Below are positions 12,405 to 64,000 of a DNA stretch of 64,000 nucleotides, one piece after another. The notes under the pieces are model-generated. The model was not told where the DNA came from. It made no database searches and saw only the letters and a list, made by a program, of their open reading frames with translations. Position 1 is the first letter of the stretch; each line of letters opens with the position of its first letter. This DNA comes from a virus. The stretch is taken from IMG/VR virus record IMGVR_UViG_3300045988_181536, positions 110,314-174,313 of that record. One strand, given 5' to 3'. The position numbers and the translations under genes were made by a program.

Positions 12405-15400
12405 ATGAGAGAAAGCGAAATTAATTTACCCCCCGTGAATATGGATTTGCCATGTCCTAAATTGGCAGATTTTTGCGGAGATTTATCGTATAAACGTTGT
12501 AAGGATGACTTAACTCCCGAAAACGATAATGTAGTATTTTTAAATGGTGTAGGCAGGTTAAATGCGGATATAATGTTTTTAACTGCGGCGCCATTAAAAG
12601 AGGATGTGGATGCGAGATATTCTACACCTATGCATTTAAAATCGGGTGCCGGTGAAATGTTTCGCGCAATATGTTTGCAAAATGGCATTGATATTGATGA
12701 CTGTTATTTTACGTCATTAATAAAGTACGGAATAAAACAAAAGAATTTAAAAGGTTGTAAAAAGGATATAGATTATTGTTTGCCTTTGCTTCTGGAAGAA
12801 TTTCAGTATTGTCACCCAAAAATTATAGTTTGCGTCGGTACGGAAGCGTGTGACTTTATTTTAAATTATAAAATAAGCGTATCAAAATTGGAAGAGGCGT
12901 GGTTTTTTAGTCAAGAACACAACGCTCATGTGTTTGTAATTAGCAGTATTTATAATGCCTATTATAAGCCTGAATTGTACGATAAATTAGATAAAGAGAT
13001 AGGCATGTTGGCTGACTTTTATGATCATTTTCTACAAGGCAAGCCAATCGAGCAGATAAAGTGTGACTATCAATGTATTTCAACTTATTCACAGTTATCC
13101 AATTTGTTAAATCAGCTTAAGTCTGAAGGTTATAAATTATTTGGAGTTGACTGCGAGTGGGGTAAACAATGTTTTGTAGACGGATATCTTAGATCAATAC
13201 AATTTGCATGGGCTCCAGGCAAGGCAGCTTATATAAACTTTAATAATGAACAAGCCGAATGGGTCTTTGATGCATCAAAAGAATCGGTATGTAAATTATT
13301 GCAAGATTTTTTTAATGACCCTGAAGTGCATTTTGTAGGGCATAACGGAGCGGCTGATGCTCAATGGATGTCAACACATTTGGGACTAAATGTGTATGAC
13401 GGCAAGTTTATTTTTGACACCATGTTTGGTATTCAGACAGCTGATGAATATGCTGATCAAAAGTTGGAAAAATTAGCTGCCAAATACACAGATAAAGGCA
13501 GATATGATATTGATCTGATCTTATGGAAGAAAAATAATAAAGGCGTATCCTTTGATGAAGATGAAGGATATGGACAAGTTCCTTTGGAAATTCTTTACCC
13601 ATATGGTTGTTCGGATGCCGATGTAACTTTAAGATTGTATCCGATTATTAAAGACATGTTAATTAAAGACGGCACTTATGATTATTTCATGAATATTAAG
13701 TTGCCGTTTGTTATTGATGGATTTACCTCCATGTCTATTGCGGGTGTGCCTTTTTGCACTGAGGATGCCAATAAAGCGCGAATAGCTTATCTGGCCGCAG
13801 GCGTAGTCATGCAAAAGTTGTTTATGCAAATGCTTAAAAAAGAGGCATATGATTTGTTTTATACGGAAGTGTCAAAAATTCCGCAGGAAACGCCTGTAGC
13901 GAATATTGCAGAAATTCAAAAGTTTTTTGATGATGAAAGATCTTTTGAAGATATTTTTAATCTGTTAAAAAAACTTTATGGGCGCAAAGCATTGCCTTTA
14001 TTGCCGTTTGCTGAACATTATTACTATGTGGATGCCTTTAATCCCAATTCTGCAGAGCATAAAAAGAAATGGTTGTTTGACGTAAAGAAATACACGCCTA
14101 TTAAAACAACTAAGCCGGAAGAGGGTAATGCAATACCCTGGGAAAGAGTATTAAAAATGTCCCCCGCTAAGCAGAAAAATTATAAGCCTGCTGTGGATAA
14201 AGATACTCTTAAAATATTTGCGGATAAAGGAGATGATTTATGTCTGCATTTATTGCAAATGAATGCAATTAATCAGATAACCAAGAATTTTCTAAAAGGT
14301 GAAGAAGGCGGGCTGCAAAAGTTTTTAACTTCAGATGGAAGGCTGCATTCCAACTTCGTTATGACCGAAAGCTCACGGCCACGATCGTTTAAGCCTAACA
14401 TCTTAAACATACCAAGATATGTTACAGATTACATAGACAAGGGTTTCACGAAAGTATTAAAGTATTTTAATATTACAGATAAATCTGATTTGTCGGAGTT
14501 TAATGAAGATAATTTTAATGAAATCGTAAATTCTTTACGTGAAACTTACGGCATTACCGAAAATATAACGATAAAAGATATGGTGCCTGCACCGTTGCGC
14601 TGGTGCTTTAAAGCGCCTGAAGGGTATTGTTTTGTCGATGCAGACTATGCCACAGCTGAAGTATGGTCGATTGCATATTTGGCAAATGATAAAAAGTTAA
14701 TTTCCACTTTGAATGATCCGGATCCGCAATTTGCATTTAAAAAGATGCCTGATGGTTCGGAAAAACAAGTGCGTATAGCATATTGTGATGACATTGTTGA
14801 ATTTACTGAAGATGCAAAAGATCCTGCACTACTTGTAGATCCTAATGATCCGGATTTGGTGAGAAATAATGACGGGTCTCTAAAGCATCCGAAACAAGAT
14901 GTTCACTGGGTTGCAGTGGAAAATAAATTTATGCTTAACACACCCCGAGAAAAGTTAAACAAGAAGAAGACGAGAGATGCTGCGGGAAAGGTAGCTAATT
15001 TTTGTTCTGGCAAAGAAAATTACGTTTATACTTTAGAGGGTTATAAAAAAGCAAAGTTAATAAAACAAGGAGATATTTTAAAATCAATATCCGGTTTTAC
15101 AAAAACTTTATCTGTTACTGCTTTAAATGAGAGAGACTGCATTAAGATCAGATTAAGTTCCGGATTAGTGGCTACTTATCATAAATATCATAAGCTTAGA
15201 TGCTTTAATGGTACGGAAATGGTCTGGGTAAGAGTTAAAGATATCGATCCAAAAAGGCATAAAGTAGTTACCTTCAATCCGAGTTTTACTGAAGTTATAG
15301 GCACTTTTAATGTTCCAAAAGATTCTTATACGGATTTTTATACAGAATTGAAATGTCGTGAAGGTGATAATACCTATCGCTTGCCTGAGTGGATATTCTC

Positions 15401-16364
15401 TTTAAGTCGTGCTGAGATTTGGAGTATATTGCAACGCTTTTTAGAATTAAACCCCCGAGTCACCGATGCGGTGTGTTATCATTTTCCGTTAAAATTTTGG
15501 AAAAATAATTTAGAATTTATTTCCGATATTGCTTTATTGTTGAATTTTATAGGTTTTCAAACCAAGCTTTCGTTGGAACAAGGCGAGGATGTTTTAGTGG
15601 CTTCGGCTGCTATCGAACCTAATGGGCCTTTGCAAAATATTTATTTTAGTGAAGTTGTTTCTTTGGAACATGTGAAAGAAGATATTGTGGCAATTGAATG
15701 TGAATCCCATGAATATATAGACACTTCAATGAATAGCCATAATTCGATTCCTTATGGTGCAAGTCCTTCTTTGCTGGAACGTAACATTGAAATAGCTTCA
15801 GGTGAAAAACCTGAACCTGGTACGGGACAAAAACTTATTGACGCCTATATGAACACCAAACCGCAAGTTGCAGAATTTTTGGAATGGTGTAAGTCTCTGC
15901 CTGACGGACAAGGGTATTACCAATCGCCTTCGGGATTTAAAAGACATTTTAAAATACCGCCTTTGGATGCTCAAATGTCGGATGATCTTAGAGAAAGTAT
16001 CATAAGTAAACTTCGTCGAGAAGCTTGCAATATAGGATTGCAATCTTTGGTTGCTGACTCTTTAGCAAGGGCCATACCTCCACTAAATGCCAGTTTTAGA
16101 AAGATGAATATGAAGAGCAGAGTAGTAATTCCTTTGTATGACGCTATTTATATTTTATCTCCTTACAACGAAGTCGATTTGGCTGTAAGTATGTTGAAGT
16201 TTTTTATGTCTGAGAATAATTATTGGGACCTAAAAGGCGGTCGCTTGCGTTACAGTATTGATGTCGAAGTTACAAAACGGTGGGGTACAGAACTTTCTGA
16301 AGAAGAACACAAAGAACTAACTGAAGGATTAAAAAACGCTTGCCAGACGTTCAAGCTTGCGTAG
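12405..16364 (+). CDS. family-A DNA polymerase with N-terminal UDG-like domain, 3'-5' exonuclease domain and an intein in motif B
   Basis: N-terminus resembles family-4 UDG but carries TAAPL where GEAPG is expected. Exonuclease motif FGVDCEWG. PolA motif A DYATAEVWSIAYLAND. Motif B KVANF | intein | SIPYGAS (KxxNFGxxYG interrupted). Confidence 0.75.
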   Translation: MRESEINLPPVNMDLPCPKLADFCGDLSYKRCKDDLTPENDNVVFLNGVGRLNADIMFLTAAPLKEDVDARYSTPMHLKSGAGEMFRAICLQNGIDIDDCYFTSLIKYGIKQKNLKGCKKDIDYCLPLLLEEFQYCHPKIIVCVGTEACDFILNYKISVSKLEEAWFFSQEHNAHVFVISSIYNAYYKPELYDKLDKEIGMLADFYDHFLQGKPIEQIKCDYQCISTYSQLSNLLNQLKSEGYKLFGVDCEWGKQCFVDGYLRSIQFAWAPGKAAYINFNNEQAEWVFDASKESVCKLLQDFFNDPEVHFVGHNGAADAQWMSTHLGLNVYDGKFIFDTMFGIQTADEYADQKLEKLAAKYTDKGRYDIDLILWKKNNKGVSFDEDEGYGQVPLEILYPYGCSDADVTLRLYPIIKDMLIKDGTYDYFMNIKLPFVIDGFTSMSIAGVPFCTEDANKARIAYLAAGVVMQKLFMQMLKKEAYDLFYTEVSKIPQETPVANIAEIQKFFDDERSFEDIFNLLKKLYGRKALPLLPFAEHYYYVDAFNPNSAEHKKKWLFDVKKYTPIKTTKPEEGNAIPWERVLKMSPAKQKNYKPAVDKDTLKIFADKGDDLCLHLLQMNAINQITKNFLKGEEGGLQKFLTSDGRLHSNFVMTESSRPRSFKPNILNIPRYVTDYIDKGFTKVLKYFNITDKSDLSEFNEDNFNEIVNSLRETYGITENITIKDMVPAPLRWCFKAPEGYCFVDADYATAEVWSIAYLANDKKLISTLNDPDPQFAFKKMPDGSEKQVRIAYCDDIVEFTEDAKDPALLVDPNDPDLVRNNDGSLKHPKQDVHWVAVENKFMLNTPREKLNKKKTRDAAGKVANFCSGKENYVYTLEGYKKAKLIKQGDILKSISGFTKTLSVTALNERDCIKIRLSSGLVATYHKYHKLRCFNGTEMVWVRVKDIDPKRHKVVTFNPSFTEVIGTFNVPKDSYTDFYTELKCREGDNTYRLPEWIFSLSRAEIWSILQRFLELNPRVTDAVCYHFPLKFWKNNLEFISDIALLLNFIGFQTKLSLEQGEDVLVASAAIEPNGPLQNIYFSEVVSLEHVKEDIVAIECESHEYIDTSMNSHNSIPYGASPSLLERNIEIASGEKPEPGTGQKLIDAYMNTKPQVAEFLEWCKSLPDGQGYYQSPSGFKRHFKIPPLDAQMSDDLRESIISKLRREACNIGLQSLVADSLARAIPPLNASFRKMNMKSRVVIPLYDAIYILSPYNEVDLAVSMLKFFMSENNYWDLKGGRLRYSIDVEVTKRWGTELSEEEHKELTEGLKNACQTFKLA
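15003..15743 (+). other. intein in DNA polymerase motif B (247 aa)
   Basis: Begins CSGKENY right after ANF and ends ..MNSHN followed by S-IPYG. In frame with the host ORF. Confidence 0.6.
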
Positions 16365-42794: not shown

Positions 42795-44095
42795 ATATTC
42801 TATTTAGTCAACTACTAATCATACAAGCTGATTAGCTTGTAACTAGGTATTACTACCCGCTACAATAGGCTTGTTGACGGAAGCCCGAAAGTTATTTGCT
42901 ATATTGATAGCTGCATTTAAATCTGCATTGCATTCAAATCCACATTTCTTACACTTGAAATGGGATTGTGTAGTTCGATTGCCTTTAACGGTATACCCAC
43001 ATCTACTGCATTTTTGCGATGTATAACGAGCATCAACGTGTTGAACACTACAGCCCTTAGCTAATGCTTTGTATGTTAGGAATTGCTCTAGCTGGAAGAA
43101 ACTCCACGAATTTACTTTAGCCCTTTCGGACTTTCGCAATTTGCTACTACGATCTCTAATACCATCTAGTTTTTCAAGAACTATAGTAGTACCGGGAACG
43201 CACATAGAAACAATATTCTTACTAATACAATGATTCATATCCGTAACGAAACGGTTCTCCTTCATACTTAATGTACGGAGGTGTCTTTTAGCGGATTTAG
43301 AACCCTTGGATTGTAGTTTGGATCTTAAAATAGCATAGCGTTTCTTTACTTGTAGAACATGTTCTCCAGAGAAGATAGTACCATCAGATAGTGTAGCTAT
43401 ATTGACTATGCCTCGATCTATACCGAGTACATTATCATTGGAACATTGCACATCCTCAACCTCCTTCTCAAATATGATGTGTAGGAATAATTTGCCTTTC
43501 TTTAATGAGAGTGTAGCACCTTTCCTACGCCACGAGAAGTATTGTTTAAAGTGGTCTGTTAGATTTACTTTAAATCGTAATCTACCATTCAATGTTAGGA
43601 TAGAAACCTCGAAACGATCGAACCATATATTAAAGGAGTTCTTAGTTAATCTTAAAGCCATTTGTTTGGATTTAGGACATTTGAATTTCTTATGTTTCTT
43701 TCGTTCTAGTTTCGTAGTGGCTTTGATGGCTTCCGCTGCCTGATCCCGAACTTGTGTAGCGAGATCAGCTGGTAGTGAGAATTGTGTTCTACAATAATCA
43801 TAGGTTTGATCGTGAAGCTTTCGTTTATCAAAATTACGATCCTTGAAACCTATTTCACAAATATAGTTATACGCCTCAGTATAGGCTCGAAATGTAGGAA
43901 GTAAATCGGTAGGATTTACGTTCTCTAGCTTAAGCTTTACTGTGCGGAGTAATTTCATTTAATAGTTAATATATTCATATATTAATATAATAATGTCAAC
44001 AACAAATACTTCAAAACACTAAACAATAGAAAGGAGACTTCCGAAATTCCTTGCAATAGACAATCTATTGCGTATCCTTTCGGGACTAACAATGA
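42795..44095 (-). mobile_element. IS200/IS605-family TnpB-only (IS1341-like) element
   Basis: A tnpB ORF is flanked by subterminal hairpins: caagct-gatt-agcttg at about 42808-42833 on the tnpB 3' side and the nested ccgaaa..gcaataga-caa-tctattgc..tttcgg at about 44041-44087 on the 5' side. No terminal inverted repeats, as expected for this family. Ends are approximate. Confidence 0.55.
42843..43958 (-). CDS. tnpB: TnpB (RuvC-like RNA-guided nuclease of the IS605 family)
   Basis: 371 aa. C-terminal zinc finger within the RuvC-III region: CSRCGYTVKGNRTTQSHFKCKKCGFECNADLNAAINIA. Confidence 0.8.
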   Translation of the reverse strand: MKLLRTVKLKLENVNPTDLLPTFRAYTEAYNYICEIGFKDRNFDKRKLHDQTYDYCRTQFSLPADLATQVRDQAAEAIKATTKLERKKHKKFKCPKSKQMALRLTKNSFNIWFDRFEVSILTLNGRLRFKVNLTDHFKQYFSWRRKGATLSLKKGKLFLHIIFEKEVEDVQCSNDNVLGIDRGIVNIATLSDGTIFSGEHVLQVKKRYAILRSKLQSKGSKSAKRHLRTLSMKENRFVTDMNHCISKNIVSMCVPGTTIVLEKLDGIRDRSSKLRKSERAKVNSWSFFQLEQFLTYKALAKGCSVQHVDARYTSQKCSRCGYTVKGNRTTQSHFKCKKCGFECNADLNAAINIANNFRASVNKPIVAGSNT

Positions 44096-53440: not shown

Positions 53441-53554
53441 TAAGCGAAAAAATAAACTAAATTGAGGTATATATTATTAAGAAAGAATATTTATCTACAG
53501 CTAGACATTTCGCATATTCTGTGCGAAATGGGAAATTTAGATGTAGATAAATAA

Positions 53555-54076
53555 ATGATTACTATGGAAAAAGTTGTATATGGAAATCCCACAATTGAAG
53601 GCAAAGTGATGGACAACGTAAGCGTCAACCACGACGCTTACGTTGGACCTAACGCAGTCGTCAAGGGAAATGCGTACGTGCGTGATGGTGCACGCATAGA
53701 GGGCAATGCCGTCGTGGATGGCAACGCCGAAATCCACGATGCCGCTACAATAAAGGGAAATGCCGTCGTTGATGGCAACGCCCGCGTGGGTGGGAATTTC
53801 ATCGTGGGCGGCCACGCCCACGTAGGAGGGGAAGCCTCTCTAAGTGGGGAAGGTTCCGTAGGCGGTTTCGCCGACATCAACTCTGACGACGACTACGTCG
53901 TTATACATGGGCTGACCCCCCACCCGTTGACGGTGTACAAATCCTCCGTGTGGGGGTTTGAGGTTTCCATCCAGGGGCAGTGGGAGACATCGATTGAGAA
54001 TTTCCTGGAACTCGAAAGATTTCCAGGAAATGTAAAGAAAATTATCGAGCTCATAGCTCAAAAATGGAAAAAATAA
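53555..54076 (+). CDS. repeat protein with GNAxVxDGxA-type deca/icosapeptide repeats (beta-helix-like), GC-rich gene
   Basis: VKGNAYVRDGARIEGNAVVDGNAEIHDAATIKGNAVVDGNARVGGNFIVGGHAHVGGEASLSGEGSVGG. Tandem repeats of about 30 nt are visible at the DNA level. GC content is far above the flanks. Confidence 0.45.
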   Translation: MITMEKVVYGNPTIEGKVMDNVSVNHDAYVGPNAVVKGNAYVRDGARIEGNAVVDGNAEIHDAATIKGNAVVDGNARVGGNFIVGGHAHVGGEASLSGEGSVGGFADINSDDDYVVIHGLTPHPLTVYKSSVWGFEVSIQGQWETSIENFLELERFPGNVKKIIELIAQKWKK

Positions 54077-54090
54077 AATAGCCCCACAAT

Positions 54091-54130
54091 ACACAACCGG
54101 TGGAAATCCACCGGTTGTGTATTTTTTTTT
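54091..54130 (+). terminator. rho-independent terminator
   Basis: Perfect 13-bp stem acacaaccggtgg/ccaccggttgtgt, loop aaat, then a run of 9 T. Confidence 0.7.
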
Positions 54131-54201: not shown

Positions 54202-57200
54202 ATGTCATCTTCGAATATAAACGACTTAAGCGCATCAAATAATCCTAAAGAAATTATGGCTAAAAAAAATAAGCTTATTCCGGTATTAAAACGCGGAGTA
54301 ATAACAGAAGAACCGGATGATATTGAAAAGGTTAGATATGAGTTCGTGTCTCCAAATCAATTCTTTGGCAATACATTAAATTTATTACCAATGCAAAATT
54401 CCGTTACTGCTGCAAGGGCGTTTTATGAGCATAAGTTTATTACTCAAGCCTTGCCTATTAAAGACGGCGAATCCCCTAATGTGCAATCTTTAAAAAATGC
54501 GGATAATAACGAGTCATATGAGGATTATTTAGGCAAAAAAACCGGTGTTATTTCATTGGATGACGACGATAATTCTGCTGATATTTTGGAAGTGACGCCG
54601 GATTATATTAAATATAAAAACGATAAAGGCGAAACTAAGACTAAGAATTTATATAACAATTTTGCCTTTAATCGTAAAACCATGCTTACTAATTATCCTT
54701 TGGTAAAAGCGGGTGACAAAATAAGCAGGGATAAATCCAAAAATCCGCCTATTTTGGCTAAAACCAACTTTACTGATAATAACGGCACTTTAAATATGGG
54801 CCTAAATGCCAGAGTGGGATTTGTGCCGTATAAGGGATGGTCCATGGATGATGCCGTGGTGATATCGGAAGATTTTGCTAAAAAGATGACTTCGCAACAT
54901 ATGTATCAATATAGCGAAGCTAATGACAGCAAGGATATAAAAACAGGCAAAGACCATTTTAAAGCTTTTTATCCGGATAAGTTTAACAAGGAACAGATGG
55001 ATAAAATAGACGATAATGGCGTTATTAAAGCAGGCACTGTGGTGAATCCCGGTGATCCATTAATCGTATCCACACGTTCCAGGGTTGTGTCCTCTAATGA
55101 TGCTAATTTAGGTAGATTATCCAAGTATTTAAAAACAACGCGATTGGACTCATCCCAAGTATGGGATCATAATACTCCGGGTGTCGTAACTGATGTTGTC
55201 AAAACAAATGACGGATATAAGGTTAACGTTGAGACTTTTGCGCCTATGCAAGAGGGGGATAAGATGTGCTATCACCCCGATACTGAAGTATTCACGGAAG
55301 ACGGATGGAAGAATATAACTGAGGTTAAATTGGGCGACAAAGTTGTTGCTTTAACCACAGATTTATCAGGAAAACCGAGCGGATATAAGCTTTCAGATGT
55401 AATAGAAATACATAAATATAAATTAAATAATGATACTTTATATGGTTATGAAGATGAGCATGTTGCTCAGTTAGTTACTGGAAATCATAATTGCGCTATT
55501 AATTGTTTAGACAAGTTGACCTATGAAACTGCAAATCTTTTATCTTATTCCTCAAAAGATGAACAGTTTATTTCTGTAAGTCCTGATTTTGATTTAAATA
55601 ATGGGAATGATTTAAAGTATACGTTTATAAATAAAAACAATGTATATAAAGCATATGATTATTCCGGAGAGGTAATAGGCATAGGAGTTAACGCTTTTTC
55701 GCATATTATTTTAACGAGATATCATAATAAACCTATATTCTCGGGCAACTCAAGTCGCTCCGGTAATAAGTTAACTGTATCCCATATTTTACCGCAAAAT
55801 GAAATGCCGAGAACAAAAGACGGCAAACCGTTAGATGTATTATTTAATCAGTTGGGTTTGGTGTCTCGAGTTAATGCCAATATGATGTATGAAGCTATGC
55901 TTGGGAAGGTTGCCGAGAAAACGGGTAAAAAATATAAATTGCCGACCTTTAATAAAAATAGCGAAAAATGGTATGATTTTGTCGAAAACGAATTAAAGAA
56001 AAATAACTTGTCTGATGTCGAACCCGTTTATGATCCAGTAATTGATAGAGACTTAGACCAACCTATTGCTGTAGGCAATGCTTATTTTCTTAAACTGCAT
56101 CATACGTCTGACTCCAAACTTTCCTCAAGGGGTCAGGGCATTTATGACCAAAATGAAATGCCTGTAAAGGGCGGGGAAGAAGGCATGAAAAGTAAAAGAC
56201 ACAGCAACTTGGAGAGTAATGCGATTTTATCTTCCGGTGCATATAACGTAATTAAAGACGCAATACATTTAAGGGGACAACGCAATGATGATTATTGGCG
56301 TAAGGTTCGTATGGGGCAGACGCCATCATTAGCCAAAAAATCGCCTTTTATCTGGGATAAGTATATTGCTTTAATGCAAGGCGCAGGAATAAATGCAAAA
56401 CGCGCTGATAATGGCGATTCGATTCAAGCCACACCTTTTACAGATAAGGACTTTGCATTATTTAACCCTGTTGAAATAAAAAATGACGGCATTATAGACT
56501 TTAAAAATATGAAACCTATTTCCGGCGGATTATTTGATCCTGCTTTAACTGTCGGCAACAGATGGGGAAAAATTACATTAGATAGGCCTTATCCTAATCC
56601 TGCATTTGAAGATACGATAATATCTTTATTAGGACTTAAAAGGTCTACGTTTAATGATATATTAGCCGGAAAAGAATCATTGCTTAAATACGGCACCGGA
56701 ACCAAGGCTATATATAATGCATTGTCGGATATAGACATAGACAAAGATTTAGAACAGGCAAAACAAGATTTTAAATATGGACCAAAATCTAAAAAGCAAC
56801 AGGCACTAAATCGTATAATGGCTTTAGACGGATTAAAAAATAACCGTATGAAGCCTGAAGAATTTATGATTACGAAGGTGCCTGTTATACCACCTAAATT
56901 CAGGCCTTATTCTGTTATGGGTAAAGATACTTTCTTGCCTGGGGATGCAAACGAGCTATATCAAGATGTAATTAACATGGCGCATACCCAGGGCGAGATA
57001 TTGCAAGAATTAGGCCCCGATGAAGCAGATAAAAATGTGCCTAATGTTTATAAATCTTTAAAAGCTTTGTATGGTTACGGAGAGCCTGCAAGTCGCAAAT
57101 TAAAGCAAAGAGGAGTATCAGGATTTTTACAAAAACTTATCGGGGGAACTTCTAAGTTTTCGCAATGGAATAGGAATATCATAAGCAAGCCCGTGGATTT

Positions 57201-57582
57201 TTCTGCGAGAGGCGTAATCGATGCAAATCCCGAGATTTCTATGGATGAGCTTGGTATTCCTTATGAAATGGGTTTTGAGATTTATTCGCCATATATTCAG
57301 CGAGAGCTTGTAAAAAGAGGCCTTTCACCAAAAGATGCGTTACAGAATATTAAAGACCAGACAAAAATGGCAAAAGATGCGTTGCAGACTGTGGTGGATG
57401 GAGGCAGATGGATTACTGCAAGTAGGGCACCGGCGTGGCATAAGTTCAATGTACTTGGCTTTAAACCTGTGTTTCATGAGGGCAAGAATATATTGCTTCC
57501 GCCTGTGGTGAGCTCTGGATTAGGGGCTGATTTTGACGGCGACTGCCAATGGGGGCACGTGTTCCTGTTAACTAAGTCTTGA
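54202..57582 (+). CDS. RNA polymerase beta C-terminal portion fused to beta' N-terminal portion (through the DFDGD active site), containing a mini-intein
   Basis: LNARVGFVPYKGWSMDDAVVISEDF aligns to beta [25 protein letters not shown]. GDKM | intein | SSRSGNKLTVSHILP..DVLFNQLGLVSR aligns to beta GDKMAGRHGNKGVISKINP..DIVLNPLGVPSR. Beta' motifs follow: PPKFRP, DFSARG, RAPAWHKF, and the catalytic GADFDGD 13 residues before the stop. Confidence 0.8.
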   Translation: MSSSNINDLSASNNPKEIMAKKNKLIPVLKRGVITEEPDDIEKVRYEFVSPNQFFGNTLNLLPMQNSVTAARAFYEHKFITQALPIKDGESPNVQSLKNADNNESYEDYLGKKTGVISLDDDDNSADILEVTPDYIKYKNDKGETKTKNLYNNFAFNRKTMLTNYPLVKAGDKISRDKSKNPPILAKTNFTDNNGTLNMGLNARVGFVPYKGWSMDDAVVISEDFAKKMTSQHMYQYSEANDSKDIKTGKDHFKAFYPDKFNKEQMDKIDDNGVIKAGTVVNPGDPLIVSTRSRVVSSNDANLGRLSKYLKTTRLDSSQVWDHNTPGVVTDVVKTNDGYKVNVETFAPMQEGDKMCYHPDTEVFTEDGWKNITEVKLGDKVVALTTDLSGKPSGYKLSDVIEIHKYKLNNDTLYGYEDEHVAQLVTGNHNCAINCLDKLTYETANLLSYSSKDEQFISVSPDFDLNNGNDLKYTFINKNNVYKAYDYSGEVIGIGVNAFSHIILTRYHNKPIFSGNSSRSGNKLTVSHILPQNEMPRTKDGKPLDVLFNQLGLVSRVNANMMYEAMLGKVAEKTGKKYKLPTFNKNSEKWYDFVENELKKNNLSDVEPVYDPVIDRDLDQPIAVGNAYFLKLHHTSDSKLSSRGQGIYDQNEMPVKGGEEGMKSKRHSNLESNAILSSGAYNVIKDAIHLRGQRNDDYWRKVRMGQTPSLAKKSPFIWDKYIALMQGAGINAKRADNGDSIQATPFTDKDFALFNPVEIKNDGIIDFKNMKPISGGLFDPALTVGNRWGKITLDRPYPNPAFEDTIISLLGLKRSTFNDILAGKESLLKYGTGTKAIYNALSDIDIDKDLEQAKQDFKYGPKSKKQQALNRIMALDGLKNNRMKPEEFMITKVPVIPPKFRPYSVMGKDTFLPGDANELYQDVINMAHTQGEILQELGPDEADKNVPNVYKSLKALYGYGEPASRKLKQRGVSGFLQKLIGGTSKFSQWNRNIISKPVDFSARGVIDANPEISMDELGIPYEMGFEIYSPYIQRELVKRGLSPKDALQNIKDQTKMAKDALQTVVDGGRWITASRAPAWHKFNVLGFKPVFHEGKNILLPPVVSSGLGADFDGDCQWGHVFLLTKS
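55267..55749 (+). other. mini-intein (161 aa) in the conserved beta GDKxxxRHGNKG motif
   Basis: Starts CYHPDTEV after GDKM. Block B is LVTGNHNCAI. Ends ..KPIFSGN followed by SSRSGNK. The terminal pair is Gly-Asn. Confidence 0.6.
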
Positions 57583-57613
57583 CAAAGTTTTCCATATTCT
57601 AATGATGTAGGGT

Positions 57614-59050
57614 ATGGAAAATAAATTATCAGACTTAATTTCTTTAAAACACAGCAAAGAATTTAATAACAAGAAACAAAAGTTTATAGATTTCTTAAAT
57701 ACCAATCTGGAAGTTCTACAGTTAAGAGAAAAATATAACTTAACTGTAGAAGATTTAAATTGGCATCTTACGAGAAAATTAGATTTCTATAAACACGAGT
57801 GTCCTGTATGTGGAAAACCTGTGCATGCTAACAAATGGGGTTGTTGGGATTTTCCCACCTATTGCTCAGTTAAGTGTAGAATGTCTGATCCGAAATATTG
57901 GGATAAAATTAAAGAAAGTAACGTAAAAAAATATGGTACGCCTTATTCGTTTCAGTCTGAAATAATTAAGTCGAAAATTAAACAGACGAATCTTCAACGT
58001 TATGGCGTAGAAAATCCAGCTATACTTGATTCTATTAAAGAAAAAGCTAAGGCTACTTGTCTGGATAAGTACGGAGTAGTTTCTACAGCGTTAGTGCCTG
58101 AAATTAGAGAGCTACAGAAAAAATCCCTAATACAGAATTATGTTTTAAATTGTAATATAACTAATGATGTTTTAAATTTAAAAAAAGAAATCTTAAGTTT
58201 TGTTAAAACAATATATTCTGGAGAAATATGTTTTGAAGATAAATCTATTGTTATAGATTCTTTGAATAAAAGAAAAAATCTTGAATTAGACATTTATTTG
58301 CCAGAAAGAAAACTGGCTTTTGAAATTAATGGTTCTTATCAATGTAGTTTGATGGATAAAAAACCAAGTTATAATACATATAAAACTAAGTTGTGTGAGG
58401 AAAAGGGTATACATTTAGTGCATATTATGGAATATACATGGGTTAATAATCCTGAAGGAGTGAAATCCAGAATTAAAGACTTATTGGGTATTTATGATCA
58501 AACAATATACGCCAGAAAATGTGAGGTTAGAAAAATAGAGTATAACAAAGCAAAAGAATTTTTAATTATGAATCATTTGCAAGGAGAAGTAGTTTCTTCG
58601 CGTAACTATGGTCTATTTTATAATGATGACATTGTAGGTGTAATGACTTTTGGTTCTCCAAGGTTTAATAAGAAATATTCTTGGGAATTACTAAGATTTT
58701 GTGTTAAACAAGGTCTGCATATTCCTGGAGCAGCATCAAAATTATTGTCATTTTTTGTAAAAGAAGTTAAACCTGATAACTTAATAAGTTATGCAGATAG
58801 GACTTGGAGTAATGGTAAGCTATATAGAGCATTAGGATTTAAATTAGAAGGTGAAACTAAACCAGGATATGTTTATGTAAAAAATAACAATCAAGAAGTT
58901 TTATGTTGGTATAAAAGTCAAAAACACAATCTAAAGAATTTATTGGGAGACCAATTTGATTCAACATTATCTGCATCAAAAAATATGATTAAGGCACACT
59001 ATTGGAAAGTTTATGACTGCGGAAATTTAATTTTTTCTAAAACATTTTAA
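57614..59050 (+). CDS. Zn-finger / KYG-repeat protein with a C-terminal GNAT-like domain (possible homing-endonuclease-associated protein)
   Basis: N-terminal CPVCGKPVH..CSVKCR. Three tandem repeats of about 35 aa (KKYGTPYSFQSEIIKSKIKQT / QRYGVENPAILDSIKEKAKAT / DKYGVVSTALVPEIRELQKKS). The C-terminal Q-G-x-x-x-G-A-A segment resembles GNAT motif A. It sits exactly where the beta' gene is interrupted. Confidence 0.3.
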   Translation: MENKLSDLISLKHSKEFNNKKQKFIDFLNTNLEVLQLREKYNLTVEDLNWHLTRKLDFYKHECPVCGKPVHANKWGCWDFPTYCSVKCRMSDPKYWDKIKESNVKKYGTPYSFQSEIIKSKIKQTNLQRYGVENPAILDSIKEKAKATCLDKYGVVSTALVPEIRELQKKSLIQNYVLNCNITNDVLNLKKEILSFVKTIYSGEICFEDKSIVIDSLNKRKNLELDIYLPERKLAFEINGSYQCSLMDKKPSYNTYKTKLCEEKGIHLVHIMEYTWVNNPEGVKSRIKDLLGIYDQTIYARKCEVRKIEYNKAKEFLIMNHLQGEVVSSRNYGLFYNDDIVGVMTFGSPRFNKKYSWELLRFCVKQGLHIPGAASKLLSFFVKEVKPDNLISYADRTWSNGKLYRALGFKLEGETKPGYVYVKNNNQEVLCWYKSQKHNLKNLLGDQFDSTLSASKNMIKAHYWKVYDCGNLIFSKTF

Positions 59051-59081
59051 TCTTAACTTATAACTTTATTTTTAAATATTT

Positions 59082-59690
59082 ATGGAAACATCACAAATTA
59101 AATGGGGATTTCTTCGAGAAACTGAAGCTAAAGCAAAACAACTGGGATTGGATGCCGATACAGGTCTACATAGAACAGGCTTAGATACCTATCTATCAGC
59201 AATCTATCCTGAAGTTACTGATTGGATTCACGATAAATGTGTAAAAGGACTTTTAGTTGATGGAAAGCAAAGTCTTTTTCGTCCTGATTATAGAAGTGAA
59301 ACCTTAAAAATGATTGTTGAATTTGACGGTATACAGCATTATCAAAATCCCGAAAAGATTTTAGCGGACAAATTTAAAACAGATCTTTTTACGAAAGCCG
59401 GTTATAAGGTAATTAGAATACCATATTTTATACAGTTAACCAATAAGGTCATTAAAACATTATTTAATGTGGAAATAGAAACACCTATGTTTGATGAGTC
59501 TATTCCTTCAATAGGTGTTAAAGGCAAATGCACTCCTGCATTTTTGTGCCCGACAGGTGTAATAAGGATGGCAAAAGAGTTTCATAATATATCTCCGGAA
59601 CAATATATTATAAACGTTAATGCTGTCAGATCTTATCCAGACGAGCTTACAGGACTAAGTTTACTTGAAGCTTACTATAAAAGTTTATAA
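59082..59690 (+). CDS. DUF559 / Vsr-like PD-(D/E)xK family endonuclease
   Basis: RPDYRSE..IVEFDGIQHY....D..K..LFTKAGYKVIRIPY matches the DUF559 pattern (RPDF...IE.DG..H......D..R...L...G..V.R). Confidence 0.5.
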   Translation: METSQIKWGFLRETEAKAKQLGLDADTGLHRTGLDTYLSAIYPEVTDWIHDKCVKGLLVDGKQSLFRPDYRSETLKMIVEFDGIQHYQNPEKILADKFKTDLFTKAGYKVIRIPYFIQLTNKVIKTLFNVEIETPMFDESIPSIGVKGKCTPAFLCPTGVIRMAKEFHNISPEQYIINVNAVRSYPDELTGLSLLEAYYKSL

Positions 59691-59694
59691 TTAA

Positions 59695-60306
59695 ATGGAA
59701 ACTCTAACCAAACAAAACATGACAATAAAAGAAAAACTGGATTTATTAATCAAAGCCAACACAGCCTATAGAATAGGCAATCCTATTATCACAGACCAAG
59801 AATATGATTTAATCATCAGCGAAATAAAAGATACAAAAGAGTATAATGAAATAAAGTACTTCCTCAATGAAGGCGCAGACGGATCGGATTTTAAACATTC
59901 CTACGTGATAGGATCATTGGAAAAGCTTAAAAATGGTGAAGATGATACAATAAAGTCTTTTGATAAAAATAACTTAACAAAAAATTGGATAATTACACCC
60001 AAACTTGATGGGGCATCTTTGACGTTGTATTACATAAACGGTCAGTTGGCAGATATTGCTACGCGAGGGGATGGTTATAAGGGTAAATCGCAATTTAAAC
60101 GCTTGTTTGATTTAAATATTCCCAAGACTTTAAAATTTGCAAAAGGTACAGTTGTTATAAGAGGAGAAATACTTTTAACTCATCAGGCATTTGATAGACT
60201 TAATGCCGATACTAATGGCAAATATAAAAAGCATCCGAGAAATGCTGTCGTAGGACTTTTGGGAGATAAAAATGACACTTCTGACATTCTCCAAGCACTA
60301 AAGTAG
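59695..60306 (+). pseudogene. truncated NAD-dependent DNA ligase (LigA) fragment; first about 200 aa of the adenylation domain only
   Basis: TPKLDGASLTLYYINGQLADIATRGDGYKGK carries the LigA KxDG adenylation lysine and the TRGDG motif. HPRNAVVGLLGDKND aligns to LigA NPRNAAAGSLRQLDP. The ORF then stops 9 nt inside the convergent tnpB. No continuation is found within the window. Confidence 0.6.
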
Positions 60307-60341
60307 TTGGGTTCTCCTAACCTCGCGGTTTAGGTTTTCTG
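60281..60341. repeat. left arm of a perfect 61-bp inverted repeat
   Basis: ctgacattctccaagcactaaagtagttgggttctcctaacctcgcggtttaggttttctg. Its exact reverse complement occurs at 63940-64000. It spans the ligA stop and the last 14 codons of tnpB. Confidence 0.95.
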
Positions 60342-61497
60342 TTTCATCGGCGACTGCATTGGATGCTTCTGCATCTTTTAGTCTTACACCGCCTCCGCAG
60401 ACAAACACGACTTGCCCAGCCGCTAAAATATTTTTAGCTGCGTTTATATCTCTATCTAATACACTTCCACAGACTTGACATGTCCAAGACCTTTCGGAAA
60501 GCTTTAAGTCTTGTTTGATATAACCGCAGTGATTACAAGTTTTAGAGGAAGGAAAAAATCGATCAATGATTTTTAGATCTCTTCCATACCACTTGCATTT
60601 GTATTCCAACATATTGCGCAGCATACTCCAAGAAGAATTGGAGATAGCGTGTGCTAAATTATGATTTTTAAGCATATTTTTTACTGCAAGATCTTCCATA
60701 ACTATCGTTTGGTTTTCACGAATTAGTTTGGTTGTAATCTTATGCAAGGTATCTATACGCTTATTCGAAATTGTTTGATAGCATTTGGCCACCTTGACGT
60801 TTGCTTTGGTCCTATTCTTAGAACCTAACTTTTTGCAAGAAGCCTTACGTTGCAATCTTCGTAATTTATTAAAATCTTTTTTAGTATCCGGATTTTTGAA
60901 TACTTCCGCATTTGAAGTTGTTATTAAATTGTGCAACCCCAAATCCAGACCTACGGATTTATTTGAAACGGGAAGTTTGCAATCTTCATTACTATCTACA
61001 GTAATTGAAAAATACCATTCTTGAGAAGGGGTTAATCTAATCGTTAAGGATATTAATTTATCTGTAGACTTAATCCTCCAATTATCCTTAGATAATTTTA
61101 AAGGTTGCTTGGATTTAGCAATATAAACTTGGTTATTTTTGATTCTAAATCCTGAAGTAGTAAATCTTGCTGAACTTCCTGAAGATTTCTTTTTAAACTT
61201 AGGGTATTTGGCACGTTTGGCAAAAAAGTTATCAAACGCTGCGCCTAAATTTTTTATAGATTGTTGTAAACAAACATTAGATACTTCATTTAACCATGAG
61301 TATTCAGGCTGACGTTTCCATTTTGTCAGCTCTTTCATTAAATCAAAAGAGCTTAATGATTTGCCTGTTTGCGTAAATGTCGAAGACTTAAGATCAAGAC
61401 TTTTATTATAGATAAACCTAACGCATCCCAAGGTTCTACGTAGAAGAATCTCTTGGTCTTTCGTAGGATAAAATCTATGCTTTATAGTCTTTATCAT
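60298..61497 (-). CDS. tnpB: TnpB (RuvC-like RNA-guided nuclease)
   Basis: 399 aa. C-terminal CNHCGYIKQDLKLSERSWTCQVCGSVLDRDINAAKNILAAG zinc finger. Its sequence differs from the 42843..43958 TnpB. Confidence 0.8.
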   Translation of the reverse strand: MIKTIKHRFYPTKDQEILLRRTLGCVRFIYNKSLDLKSSTFTQTGKSLSSFDLMKELTKWKRQPEYSWLNEVSNVCLQQSIKNLGAAFDNFFAKRAKYPKFKKKSSGSSARFTTSGFRIKNNQVYIAKSKQPLKLSKDNWRIKSTDKLISLTIRLTPSQEWYFSITVDSNEDCKLPVSNKSVGLDLGLHNLITTSNAEVFKNPDTKKDFNKLRRLQRKASCKKLGSKNRTKANVKVAKCYQTISNKRIDTLHKITTKLIRENQTIVMEDLAVKNMLKNHNLAHAISNSSWSMLRNMLEYKCKWYGRDLKIIDRFFPSSKTCNHCGYIKQDLKLSERSWTCQVCGSVLDRDINAAKNILAAGQVVFVCGGGVRLKDAEASNAVADETENLNREVRRTQLL

Positions 61498-61685
61498 TTT
61501 TAATTGAACTTATTTAACTAAATAGATTCAGATAATGCAAGAAAAATTGTATGGTGCGCGTTAAAAAAGCTTGATAAATTAAAAATTTTATTGGATATTA
61601 TATCCAACATACCCGCCAGGCCTCTTAACAATGCCCAAATGTGGAGGGTTTAAATGAAGCCAATGGACTGGGGAATCTCGGTCGG

Positions 61686-61730
61686 TGAAAGATCTCGGAG
61701 TATTTCGGGGTCTTTCATTTTTTTTTTTTT
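61686..61730 (+). terminator. rho-independent terminator on the + strand within the IS 5'-side non-coding region
   Basis: Stem gaaagatctcgg..ggggtctttc, then a run of 13 T. No + strand ORF lies upstream, which suggests a small RNA ending here. Confidence 0.5.
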
Positions 61731-62050
61731 ACATATTTTTTATTTGTATTGACTAAAAGCTTAAGATGCTAAACACTTAATTATTATGTCACATTCTGTA
61801 GTTTTAGACCGCATTAAAGATTCCCCAGCTGTAAAATGGTTGGACAGTGCGGCAAATAATGCAGTTAAATGGCCTGGTTATGGTTTGGGGTTTTAAATAA
61901 GATATTTAATATTGAGGCACCCAAGCATAAGGATAAACATTTTAAGGATTTCATGGATAAAGTTAATCAATATTTTGATGGGAAGTCTAAAATACCTGTG
62001 AGAGTTTCCAAAAATGATTTTGTAACTACTAACTTAGCATAGGAGAAAAT

Positions 62051-62458
62051 ATGACAACAAATACTTATGGTAAAATAATAAAACAAGCCGGACTTGGCAG
62101 GGCTCTGTCATGGCTTGTTTCCAAAGGCATAAATAAGGTTATCAAATCTAAACCGATTGCAAACCGGATGGATAAAGACTGGAATGCTTATGTAAAACAT
62201 AGGGAAAAACTTGAAAATAGATTTCCTAAAGAAACCATTAGGAATGCTGATGGTTCTACTACTACGAGATTGACTCCTGAGGGTGAAAAAGCTTTTAAGA
62301 GAGAATATTTTAATGAAACTATGAAGAGAGATGGTAAAAATGTGCTTGATTTAACTCCTGAACTCACAAAAGCTAGGCTAACAAAATCTATAGACTTTAA
62401 GGATCCTGTTGCAACCACTGAGTTAGTCAGATATATAAGGCAATTAAGAAACCTATAG
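62051..62458 (+). CDS. hypothetical basic protein
   Basis: 135-aa ORF with an RBS aggag 8 nt upstream. Confidence 0.3.
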   Translation: MTTNTYGKIIKQAGLGRALSWLVSKGINKVIKSKPIANRMDKDWNAYVKHREKLENRFPKETIRNADGSTTTRLTPEGEKAFKREYFNETMKRDGKNVLDLTPELTKARLTKSIDFKDPVATTELVRYIRQLRNL

Positions 62459-62565
62459 TACCCGACAATAGGAAAATAATTGATTTTGATGCTGGATATA
62501 AAAATATATTGAAATAATTAAACTAATTATTTGTGAAATAACAGTTAAGAGAACTGTGGAACGAA

Positions 62566-62853
62566 ATGGATCCTGGATTAAAGCTGGGATTATTAGTTTC
62601 CCTACCTGCTACAGCTTTTGATGCTATGTTCACAACTCCGAGGGTTAACATAGTTGATAGAGCAATACGAAATGCTTTAATTGGAGGCACCGTGGGCTAC
62701 GGGGCTAGTAAATTAAAAAGTTATTTGGATAAAAAGCATTTAGCTAAGGAAGTAGAGAAAACTTACGGGGATAATATTATAGGAACCGGAGTAAAATCCA
62801 TTGTTAATAAAATGTATGACAATGGCATGAAATCTAAATTTCGATGGGAATAA
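62566..62853 (+). CDS. hypothetical protein
   Basis: 95-aa ORF. Confidence 0.3.
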   Translation: MDPGLKLGLLVSLPATAFDAMFTTPRVNIVDRAIRNALIGGTVGYGASKLKSYLDKKHLAKEVEKTYGDNIIGTGVKSIVNKMYDNGMKSKFRWE

Positions 62854-62871
62854 ATTTATTCACTTAAGTTT

Positions 62872-62910
62872 AAAACCAAGGAATCATTAGATCCTTGGTT
62901 TTATTTTTGA
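62872..62910 (+). terminator. rho-independent terminator
   Basis: Stem aaaaccaagga/tccttggtttt, then atttttg. Confidence 0.5.
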
Positions 62911-62946
62911 CATATGATTTTGTTTTTGCATTATTAAAACCTAATA

Positions 62947-63915
62947 ATGCAACCAATTAAAAATCCAGAGCTTTTAAATTTACCAGATATTCCGGAGGGT
63001 TATTCAGTATTTTTGGCCGATTTGTCTGAAATACCTCATGGTAAATTGACCAATGTAAATCCGGAGGGTAAAAACGGTCCTATTTATTTTTATGATACAC
63101 AGGATTTAAAAACATTGGCTTTTAATGAAGATAAAGGATGTTGGGACTGGGCTGATGTAAGTTGTTTTTCAATACATCCAAAACGACGATTAGTTATTGT
63201 TACATTATCTAACGGTTTGCAGATTTTTACGGACGATGACCCAAGGGCAATTTACGGATTAAATAAAAATACCGGAAAATACGAAAGACATACACCCGAA
63301 GAAGCTAAAGAATTGAATATAAATATTCCCGTATGTTCAGTGCTTGCAGAACATAAATATAGCAAAGATGAATTTATATTTCCTTTATTTTTTGATGATT
63401 TTAATGAAATAAGGGATGTGCAAAAGGAATTTTATCGAGTAGGAATTATCACATTAGTTTCTTATGATAAAGAACTAAAACAATTTGTTTTAGAAACTGA
63501 CGATAACTATGATTTTGCTGAATGGATTAATAAACCAGGTTTAGAGTTTGCGACTATTGACTTAATTGAAGATACGGGAGTTTATCTGGACGGTTATGAC
63601 CTTACAGTTCCGGGGTATGAAACCTTTATTAATTATAGTGGCGTTGTACTTTCGAATACGATGAATGTGCATGTGCCTGCGCTTCCTGAAGCTCAAGCTG
63701 AAATAAAAGAAAAGTTGCTGCCGTCAAAACAGATTTTTTCTCCCAGGGATTATAGGGTCGTAAATAAGCTAAAGCAGGATTATATCTTAGGTCCCAATTC
63801 TCAGATTACGGCGCCTGCAGAAAATAAATGGATATTAAATAGCGCCAAGGAATTAATGGAAGGATTAAATTCCGGCAAAATTAAATTGTCGGATGAGGTA
63901 GTGATACTACCTTAA
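62947..63915 (+). CDS. RNA polymerase beta' fragment (region just after the active site) with a novel N-terminal extension of about 220 aa and a degenerate DFDGD motif
   Basis: LIEDTGVYL..YSGVVLSNTMNVHVPALPEAQAEIKEKLLPSKQIFSPRDYRVVNKLKQDYILG..AKELMEGLNSGKIKL aligns to beta' [77 protein letters not shown]. The Asp triad is replaced by VxLxN. The ORF stops right at the inverted repeat. Confidence 0.45.
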   Translation: MQPIKNPELLNLPDIPEGYSVFLADLSEIPHGKLTNVNPEGKNGPIYFYDTQDLKTLAFNEDKGCWDWADVSCFSIHPKRRLVIVTLSNGLQIFTDDDPRAIYGLNKNTGKYERHTPEEAKELNINIPVCSVLAEHKYSKDEFIFPLFFDDFNEIRDVQKEFYRVGIITLVSYDKELKQFVLETDDNYDFAEWINKPGLEFATIDLIEDTGVYLDGYDLTVPGYETFINYSGVVLSNTMNVHVPALPEAQAEIKEKLLPSKQIFSPRDYRVVNKLKQDYILGPNSQITAPAENKWILNSAKELMEGLNSGKIKLSDEVVILP

Positions 63916-63939
63916 GTATTATAAACTTGCAGGATTAAG

Positions 63940-64000
63940 CAGAAAACCTAAACCGCGAGGTTAGGAGAACCCAACTACTTTAGTGCTTGGAGAATGTCAG
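63940..64000. repeat. right arm of the 61-bp inverted repeat; reaches the window edge
   Basis: Exact reverse complement of 60281-60341. On the + strand it re-encodes the TnpB C-terminus ENLNREVRRTQLL and its stop, so it is a solo copy of the tnpB 3' end plus adjacent flank. It may extend beyond the window. Confidence 0.95.

Follow-up and report, generated by a model that had tools for sequence, protein, structure and literature searches.

A predicted naturally split intein at the catalytic loop of a multisubunit RNA polymerase from a large phage

We analysed a 64,000-nucleotide (nt) stretch of DNA from a large phage (positions 110,314 to 174,313 of IMG/VR record IMGVR_UViG_3300045988_181536, here called the window), in which the gene for the beta' subunit of a multisubunit RNA polymerase lies in two open reading frames (ORFs), termed piece 1 and piece 2. 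The surroundings are a replication and nucleotide-metabolism region, with genes for a DnaB-type helicase, the large subunit of ribonucleotide reductase, a family A DNA polymerase, a helicase and an exonuclease. An initial annotation, made from the sequence alone, had seen correctly that beta' is interrupted directly after its DFDGD motif and that 5364 nt lie between the two pieces (Table 1). It attributed the interruption to mobile DNA; the evidence presented here points instead to a naturally split intein.

Piece 1 matches the Pfam families Rpb2_6 (RNA_pol_Rpb2_6; 3.5e-48) and Rpb1_2 (1.8e-11), and also Rpb1_1. The PHROG 25354 profile extends across the interruption, its positions 171-461 matching piece 1 and its positions 454-533 matching piece 2. 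The C-terminal end of piece 1 reads ...GLGADFDGDCQWGHVFLLTKS, that is, ...GLGADFDGD followed by CQWGHVFLLTKS and a stop codon. In all eight related loci that cover this end, including one that is 69% identical, DFDGD is likewise followed by an identical CQWGHVF, then by five or six residues that differ among the loci, and then by a stop. The short tail opens with Cys, one of the residues (Cys, Ser or Thr) with which inteins begin, in the window and in 8/8 of the close loci.

Piece 2 encodes 322 amino acids (aa), starts with Met, includes ...FINYSGVVLSNTMNVHVPALPEAQ... and ends ...SDEVVILP. Comparison of its profile with the PDB divided it in two: positions 234-317 correspond to bacterial beta' from the Met that follows DFDGD-Q (Thermus residue 745), and positions up to 232 align with intein C-termini alone (5o9i, 8.5e-7). 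The intein structures matched are the TFIIB mini-inteins 5o9i and 5o9j, the DnaB inteins 1mi8 and 4o1r, and the RadA intein 4e2u, and the matches stop at the terminal Asn of these solved inteins. In the 5o9i alignment, YDLTVPGYETFINYSGVVLSN of piece 2 is paired with YDLTVPNAENFIAGFGGFVLHN up to the last intein residue, VVLSN being comparable to FVLHN of 5o9i. VVLSN is therefore intein block G with a Thr at +1: the putative C-intein ends ...GVVLSN and TMNVHVP comes directly after it. This is the segment that had been taken for a catalytic Asp triad mutated to VxLxN.

The N-terminal part of piece 2, described at first as an extension of about 220 aa without recognisable homology, is a domain of 237 aa that resembles an intein in sequence and in predicted structure. 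The Pfam Intein_splicing family (PF14890) matches the window copy weakly (E 0.034; profile positions 21-153 of 155, with the first 20 unmatched) and is among the precomputed Pfam domains of many piece 2 homologues. An AlphaFold model built from a 50-sequence alignment (pLDDT 89.3, pTM 0.88) adopts the horseshoe-shaped HINT fold. When this model was searched against the PDB with Foldseek, the top 47 matches were inteins or the related BIL domain (best E 1.6e-6), with TFIIB, RadA, PolB1, PolII, VMA and DnaE inteins matched at a probability of 1.00; the best target-normalised TM score, 0.67, was to the cysteine-less split Aes123 PolB1 intein. The domain carries an insert of about 80 aa where endonuclease domains usually sit; as a test of the insert as a LAGLIDADG remnant, the LAGLIDADG profile of contiguous relatives was run against the mini versions and gave a best E of only 0.24, which lends that origin no support. 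The domain is under purifying selection, with dN/dS of 0.07-0.12 against four relatives; the value for the C-extein is 0.03-0.11 where computable. Ser236, Asn237 and Thr238, which provide the terminal Asn and the +1 residue (Cys, Ser or Thr) expected of an intein, are invariant in 38 and in 50 aligned sequences.

The two extein parts abut without overlap, DFDGD being continued by TMNVHVP, which gives back the universal catalytic motif of beta' exactly. About 120 proteins homologous to the C-terminal 326 aa of piece 1 were inspected; the majority have no interruption and share DFDGD-x-MN[LV]HVP, and the nearest uninterrupted relative (P0052, 58% identical) has DFDGD-TMTVHVP. Because the uninterrupted homologues (about 375 aa) terminate 85-90 aa past DFDGD, piece 2, with its stop at 63915, ends where the subunit normally does in this phage group. 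An alternative placement of the N-terminal junction, moved by one residue, was rejected since the spacing from DFDGD to MNVHVP is constant in all uninterrupted homologues and the shift adds a residue between them; it would also make Thr the last intein residue and place Met at +1.

The anatomy is that of a split intein: one ORF joins the N-extein to a short N-fragment (12 aa), and another joins a long C-fragment (237 aa) to the C-extein. In about 50 homologues, 310-400 aa in length, a Met precedes the C-intein, all keep ...SN/T (the slash marks the splice junction), and the split is retained among homologues down to about 30% identity. The host-gene motif, the fold, its conservation, this anatomy and the exact extein junction are shown by the sequences and the predicted structure. 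Taking them together, we put at roughly 80% the probability that beta' carries a naturally split intein, broken near its N-terminus and predicted to splice in trans, and is not a broken or duplicated gene. Restoration of beta' would most likely occur by post-translational ligation, with splicing itself being the predicted step.

Comparison with related loci bears on how the split arose. A megablast search of 54202-64000 against 50,697 phage records gave no match, and relatives were therefore found through their proteins; those whose piece 2 is 95-97% identical to that of the window are on contigs mostly from one metagenome. In L002, whose piece 2 is 69% identical, piece 1 ends with DFDGD followed by CQWGHVFIAVKEA and a stop, and the spacer is 141 nt long and contains no gene. 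The spacers of L007 and L008, 95% relatives, are 1.0-1.3 kb and contain small ORFs only. Those of L009 and L011 are 5.0 kb and share the arrangement of the window, with an intact 636-aa ligase and no TnpB, and those of L001, L005 and L006 are 6.0-6.6 kb and encode a 518-aa LAGLIDADG protein, an ORF of 334-352 aa and the ligase. Since the same split occurs with spacers from 141 nt to 6.6 kb, the interval is a polymorphic cargo bay and not the cause of the split.

A more distant clade (L026, L028 and the P0035 locus), whose piece 2 is about 30-35% identical to that of the window, has the order beta'-N with DFDGD and a tail of 15-16 aa (AQFAYVQVLRRKTSI or SQFAYVKVLRKIREPK), an ORF of 562-572 aa with DUF723, and C-intein-beta'. 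Between the DUF723 ORF of L026 and L028 and the 478-aa ORF that follows piece 1 in the window, identity is 40% (E 1e-60) over the last 266 aa of the latter. At the start of the C-fragment, the two split clades have an (I/L)PEGY motif in common.

These comparisons argue against the explanation given in the initial annotation, by which a mosaic of mobile genes broke beta', a duplicated copy of the active-site segment decayed, and a damaged or pseudogenised gene was left with an unrelated N-terminal extension. Mobile genes do sit between the pieces, and one of them, a TnpB element, has demonstrably destroyed a neighbouring gene. As an insertion hotspot the region has held up in so far as it is variable and contains homing-endonuclease-like and insertion-sequence genes; as the origin of the split it has not, because L002 is identically split with nothing but an empty spacer and the split is conserved to about 30% identity. 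The supposed overlap between the pieces is likewise gone, with the exteins abutting exactly and the profile boundary falling at the +1 residue, and the extension has an intein fold maintained by purifying selection. We regard this explanation as very unlikely.

Removal of the interval from the RNA by a group I or group II intron, or its bypassing during translation, would also yield one continuous beta'. Introns are abundant in phages of this kind (PMC7886860, PMC12880540). An Rfam scan of the window at gathering thresholds returned no intron or ribozyme, tRNA and an abiF motif being the only matches, and RNA splicing was dropped for this reason. In addition, intein sequence at both flanks would stay in the RNA-spliced product, piece 1 has its own stop codon, an in-frame stop lies ahead of piece 2, whose Met is the first start codon to follow it, and the genes of the interval are independently oriented. 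The chance of such a route appears negligible.

In giant beta-beta' ORFs from many IMG/VR contigs, and among metagenomic proteins, this site is occupied by an unbroken form of the intein. A profile search of 1.84 billion representatives gave 349 clusters at E<=0.001, 190 of them at E<=1e-30, and the best 150 of the 349 are mostly long proteins matched in two stretches. The contiguous inteins are 372-661 aa long, mostly 500-660, and those that we aligned carry LAGLIDADG at the canonical position. They sit in Dx[DN]GD/T: among the matches listed, the upstream junction was located in 86 representatives and lies in Dx[DN]GD in all 86. Five of these 86 (P0251, P0252, P0256, P0262 and P0309), as well as L012, have DFNGD for DFDGD, the middle metal-binding Asp being replaced by Asn. 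In the alignment of contiguous forms, some 10 conserved residues (x-Q-x-G-x-V-hydrophobic...) are followed by 30-45 variable ones and then by the segment with which the split C-fragments start, and the break therefore lies near the N-terminus and not at the usual endonuclease insertion point. The split form presumably derives from a contiguous, LAGLIDADG-containing intein that is still present at this site in many large phages, with the break probably caused by a free-standing endonuclease gene that invaded the 5' end of the intein ORF. Two further proteins were considered as possible cases of a split at another position: P0038, with a LAGLIDADG domain and a Met start, and P0217, with a C-fragment of 35 aa; both are encoded by genes that begin 33 nt or less from a contig end.

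The residues of this family differ from those of the described intein classes. Class 3 inteins are marked by Trp at block B position 12, Cys at block F position 4 and Thr at block G position 5; here the corresponding residues are Arg, Asp and Leu, invariant or nearly so. Class 2 inteins have no nucleophile at residue 1, have a penultimate Ser, use Cys+1 for direct attack and require the block B His (PMC4031507). The window family resembles this KlbA-type class in keeping the block B Thr (position 7) and the block F Asp (position 4), and it differs in that its +1 residue is Thr, not Cys, and that its members are not KlbA orthologues. The window copy itself departs from class 2 in having Cys1, Thr+1 and Asp at block B position 10, so that agreement is limited to the penultimate Ser and, family-wide, to the absence of a residue-1 nucleophile. 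Judged by its residues, the window clade, with Cys1, could take the class 1 route, and the family as a whole probably could not. The C-terminal junction is more uniform, LSN/T being found in 93 of 99 among the matches listed.

Several observations count against a splicing intein at this locus. Block B reads QI(F/I)TD-x-DPR in all members (QIFTDDDPR in the window, with the motif TDDDPR), so that the Thr of the canonical Thr-x-x-His is kept and position 10 is an invariant Asp98; Glu stands in for the block F His, and Ser is invariant at the penultimate position. Residue 1 of the 86 contiguous representatives listed is Gln in 31, Glu in 12, Asp and Ala in 11 each, Leu in 5, Tyr in 4, Cys and Gly in 3 each and Ser in 2, with four singletons, which leaves a nucleophile in about 6%; at residue 2, Gln accounts for 60% and Cys for 16%. 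Cys1 is thus a property of the clade formed by the window and its close loci, only about 6% of the wider family having Cys or Ser there, and it may not be what drives the reaction. The N-fragment was modelled with low confidence: in the fused full-intein model, residues 1-10 have a pLDDT below 50, the alignment being without rows there, and a fused model from the single sequence was uninformative (pLDDT 33). Finally, a sigma-70 promoter scan found 27 sites where 30 are expected by chance; good matches at 57579-57606, before the endonuclease gene, and at 62907-62934, before piece 2, carry no statistical weight.

One alternative that accommodates these residues is that the halves derive from an intein and do not ligate, the fragments either simply bringing the two pieces together or the C-intein merely cleaving itself off by Asn cyclisation, with a polymerase nicked after DFDGD as the result. 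The block B, block F and penultimate histidines are all absent, most of the family lacks a residue-1 nucleophile, including the split relatives P0157 (Ala1), P0137 (Gln1) and P0053 (Asp1), and the NrdA gene of phage Aeh1 is reported to be split by an endonuclease gene, its product assembling without splicing (PMC3045599). However, the terminal Asn and Thr+1 do not vary among the split forms and recur in 93/99 family junctions, and ligation needs these residues whereas association does not. The break also falls within the Mg-binding loop, and judging from RNA polymerase structures a retained 27-kDa domain or a tail of 12-15 aa would be hard to fit into the buried active centre there. Lastly, contiguous family members must excise, and for them assembly without splicing is no option. 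We therefore consider non-ligating halves unlikely.

One His, H77 (motif W/F-S-x-H), is invariant across the family; it precedes block B position 10 by 21 residues and may be equivalent to the 'NX' His of cysteine-less inteins. It is possible, at somewhat less than even odds, that the beta' Dx[DN]GD/Thr family represents a new mechanistic class that splices without a residue-1 nucleophile or the three canonical histidines, and that the window holds a working split version with a 12-residue N-fragment. In such a class, Thr+1 might attack the scissile bond directly, as a Thr version of class 2, or the bond might be activated by the invariant Asp(-1) of the host catalytic loop.

Under the trans-splicing reading, pieces 1 and 2 would be made as separate polypeptides, probably from separate transcripts, and the 12-residue N-intein would dock as the missing first strand or strands of the HINT fold of the C-intein. 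Either Cys1 would then form a thioester, or, in a class 2-like route, Thr+1 would attack the Asp(-1) carbonyl directly. After transfer of the N-extein to Thr+1, Asn237 would cyclise to free the intein, and an O-to-N shift would complete the bond, giving ...GADFDGD-TMNVHVP... and forming the Mg-binding loop. The predicted ligated junction peptides are GADFDGDTMNVHVPALPEAQ and ...GADFDGDTMNVHVPALP.... Together with removal in cis of a second, contiguous mini-intein from the beta part, this would produce a mature beta-beta' polypeptide of about 1038 aa with an intact Mg-binding loop. The expected mass of the ligated product is about 118 kDa, against 127 kDa and 37 kDa for the two pieces.

Very short N-fragments have been described in other inteins. 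PolB16, with 15 aa, and VidaL, with 16 aa, are naturally split inteins whose break directly follows strand beta2 (the S1 position); both splice, as does the engineered Ssp DnaB M86 with an 11-aa N-fragment (PMC10189870, PMC13014065); 15 aa was called 'record-short' in 2026 (PMC13014065), and PolB16 shows that the block B His can be dispensable and has a critical upstream 'NX' His (PMC10189870). The proposed split intein in the window resembles PolB16 OarG and VidaL in its break near the N-terminus, its very short N-fragment and long C-fragment, and its origin in phage or metagenome DNA, and it resembles cysteine-less inteins in its oxy-ester-type +1 residue, here Thr. It differs from PolB16 and VidaL in having Asp at block B position 10, Glu in block F and a penultimate Ser; in its host, the catalytic loop of RNA polymerase beta' and not a DNA polymerase or terminase; and in its N-fragment, which at 12 aa, against 15-16 aa, is shorter than the natural ones reported in these two papers.

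The arrangement also recalls the fractured genes of Dassa et al. 2009, in which split-intein halves flank free-standing endonuclease genes in phage-derived DNA and the hosts are DNA-metabolism genes (PMC2677866). The main text of that paper contains no occurrence of RNA polymerase. In both cases an N-extein with N-intein, one or more endonuclease genes, and a C-intein with C-extein follow one another on one strand of phage DNA, with a restriction-endonuclease-like nuclease (DUF559 in the window) among the inserts and promoter-like and terminator-like elements within them. The window differs in that its break is near the N-terminus and not at the canonical site, and in that its bay of 5.4 kb holds non-selfish cargo (the ligase) with a content that is polymorphic within one phage population.

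RNA polymerase inteins are known from archaea (Mja rPol A' and A'', Nph rPol A'') and from eukaryotes (RPA2, RPB2 and RPC2) (PMC1635734). Like them, the two in beta-beta' lie in the two largest subunits, at buried sites of the highest conservation. Unlike them, they come from a bacteriophage and one is split: among the inteins of that study only a viral-remnant copy from Phytophthora ramorum is virus-derived, and none is described as split or as coming from a bacteriophage. Our literature searches turned up no specific account of an intein at DFDGD or within the multisubunit RNA polymerases of phages.

The genes of the interval are those listed in the initial annotation, namely a Zn-finger/repeat ORF, a DUF559 nuclease, a ligase fragment, TnpB and small ORFs, and the ORF list, Pfam and PHROG bear out that inventory (Table 1). 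The 478-aa ORF matches PHROG 3339, 'homing endonuclease' (1.3e-116), and is predicted to be a free-standing homing endonuclease located, as in a fractured gene, between the intein halves. A sequence search of this ORF against the PDB gave chance-level matches only; a candidate PD-(D/E)xK-like core, with the motif ELDIYLP...AFEING, was read by eye. It co-occurs with the DUF559 ORF in L009 and L011. The two small ORFs are present in the spacers of most close relatives; on clustering of the spacer ORFs, with the window counted, family 0 was found in 7 spacers and family 2 in 5, and the first small ORF is retained even in spacers of 1 kb. Neither has a Pfam or PHROG family match.

Colinearity between the window and L009 extends to 60288, after which 1305 nt containing TnpB stand in place of 1355 nt of ligase. 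The ligase gene is thus cut after about 198 codons, leaving an ORF of 203 aa (59695..60306), whereas it is full length (636 aa) in five related loci (L001, L005, L006, L009 and L011), and the phage is probably without a working copy of this NAD ligase. The TnpB ORF matches HTH_OrfB_IS605 (6e-15), OrfB_IS605 (5.5e-24) and Cas12f1-like_TNB (2.7e-24) in Pfam, as expected of IS200/IS605 elements, and PHROG 506 (5e-122); no tnpA adjoins it. This element is the sole demonstrable recent insertion, and what it damaged, by deletion of two thirds, is the ligase gene and not beta'. Another TnpB gene of the same broad family lies at 42843-43958 (-) and encodes 371 aa (PHROG 506, 6.7e-54). Downstream of piece 2, the partial second copy of the element's 3' end carries 8 nt (CTGACATT) that the comparison with L009 assigns to the ligase gene, outside the element; the copy could be a solo right end, a guide-RNA region or part of a second element. 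The similarity of relatives to the window stops just before or at the piece 2 stop codon. Between the TnpB element and the small ORFs, an Rfam abiF RNA motif (61612-61649, +; 46.1 bits against a gathering score of 37) is followed by a terminator-like 16-bp hairpin with a T-run (61684-61719, +); this stretch is the intergenic region after the ligase in relatives and is conserved in L001, L005, L007 and L009.

Table 1. Features of the split beta' locus, in coordinates of the window
Feature	Positions	Strand	Remarks
Piece 1	54202..57582	+	1126-aa ORF; RNA polymerase beta C-terminal part fused to beta' N-terminal part
Probable contiguous mini-intein in beta part, 161 aa	55267..55749	+	GDKM/CYHPDTEV...VTGNH...PIFSGN/SSRSGNK, read from the sequence
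DFDGD codons	57529..57543	+	Mg-binding catalytic loop of beta'; N-extein ends here
Predicted N-intein fragment, CQWGHVFLLTKS, 12 aa	57544..57579	+	Stop codon 57580-57582
Homing-endonuclease-like gene, 478 aa, free-standing	57614..59050	+	Zn finger, DUF7487 repeats, Mom-like C-terminal domain (Pfam DUF7487, Mom)
DUF559 restriction-endonuclease-like nuclease, 202 aa	59082..59690	+	Pfam DUF559 E 1e-5, 25.8 bits against a cut-off of 20.6
NAD-dependent DNA ligase gene, 5' third	59695..60288	+	Pfam DNA_ligase_aden positions 7-145 of 253
IS200/IS605-type element, TnpB only	60289..61593	-	TnpB ORF 60298..61497; boundaries by comparison with L009
Two small ORFs, 135 aa and 95 aa	62051..62853	+	
Piece 2	62947..63915	+	
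Predicted C-intein fragment, 237 aa, ending ...GYDLTVPGYETFINYSGVVLSN	62947..63657	+	Predicted HINT fold, Foldseek, profile search, dN/dS
C-extein, TMNVHVPALPEAQ...EVVILP, 85 aa and stop codon	63658..63915	+	beta' residues; matches Thermus beta' 745-830
Partial inverted second copy of TnpB element 3' end	63933..64000	+	68 nt, 97% complementary to 60281-60348; runs off the window

The beta part of piece 1 contains a second, probable intein, which is contiguous. Its removal restores the motif GDKMxxRxGNK, and Rpb2_6 matches piece 1 in two stretches; matches to Hint families are weak (E about 0.1), and its terminal Gly-Asn is as in Pno RPA2 and Cre RPB2 (PMC1635734). L001, L005 and L006 have about 650 extra nt at this spot, with a faint LAGLIDADG match in L001, and the endonuclease domain of this intein thus seems to be present or absent within the population. 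The large subunit of ribonucleotide reductase (8905-12351, +; 1148 aa) matches Intein_splicing (1.2e-10) at aa 349-573, in its barrel domain. With this one and the two in beta-beta', the window therefore has at least three inteins. The family A DNA polymerase ORF (12405-16364, +; 1319 aa) has an N-terminal domain of the uracil-DNA-glycosylase superfamily and a gap of about 700 aa between its exonuclease domain and the best polymerase-domain match (aa 1115-1294), which may hide another insertion. Upstream of piece 1, G+C content peaks at 0.52 in 53500-54100, against about 0.32 around it, at an ORF (53555-54076) with GNAxVxGNA-type repeats; several long ORFs overlap it in the remaining frames and on the other strand, which is to be expected where DNA is rich in repeats and in G+C.

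Public contigs of up to about 174 kb carry the same proteins, and all members that we looked up are labelled 'hypothetical protein'; gene callers report beta' of these phages as fragments. With the split intein proposed here, an essential gene that looks broken becomes a case in which protein trans-splicing can be tested, and the catalytic centre of a multisubunit RNA polymerase is a notable setting for such an element. If the reading is correct, the polymerase would become active only after two polypeptides meet and ligate, and a natural 12-residue N-intein with Thr+1, shorter than the natural fragments of 15-16 aa in use, would be easy to synthesise. The residue pattern, apparently that of a large and undescribed intein family, suggests a splicing chemistry outside the three described classes. 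Finally, one element is found in three states, contiguous with LAGLIDADG, split around a free-standing endonuclease gene, and split around an empty 141-nt spacer, which offer a graded series for the emergence of split inteins and fractured genes.

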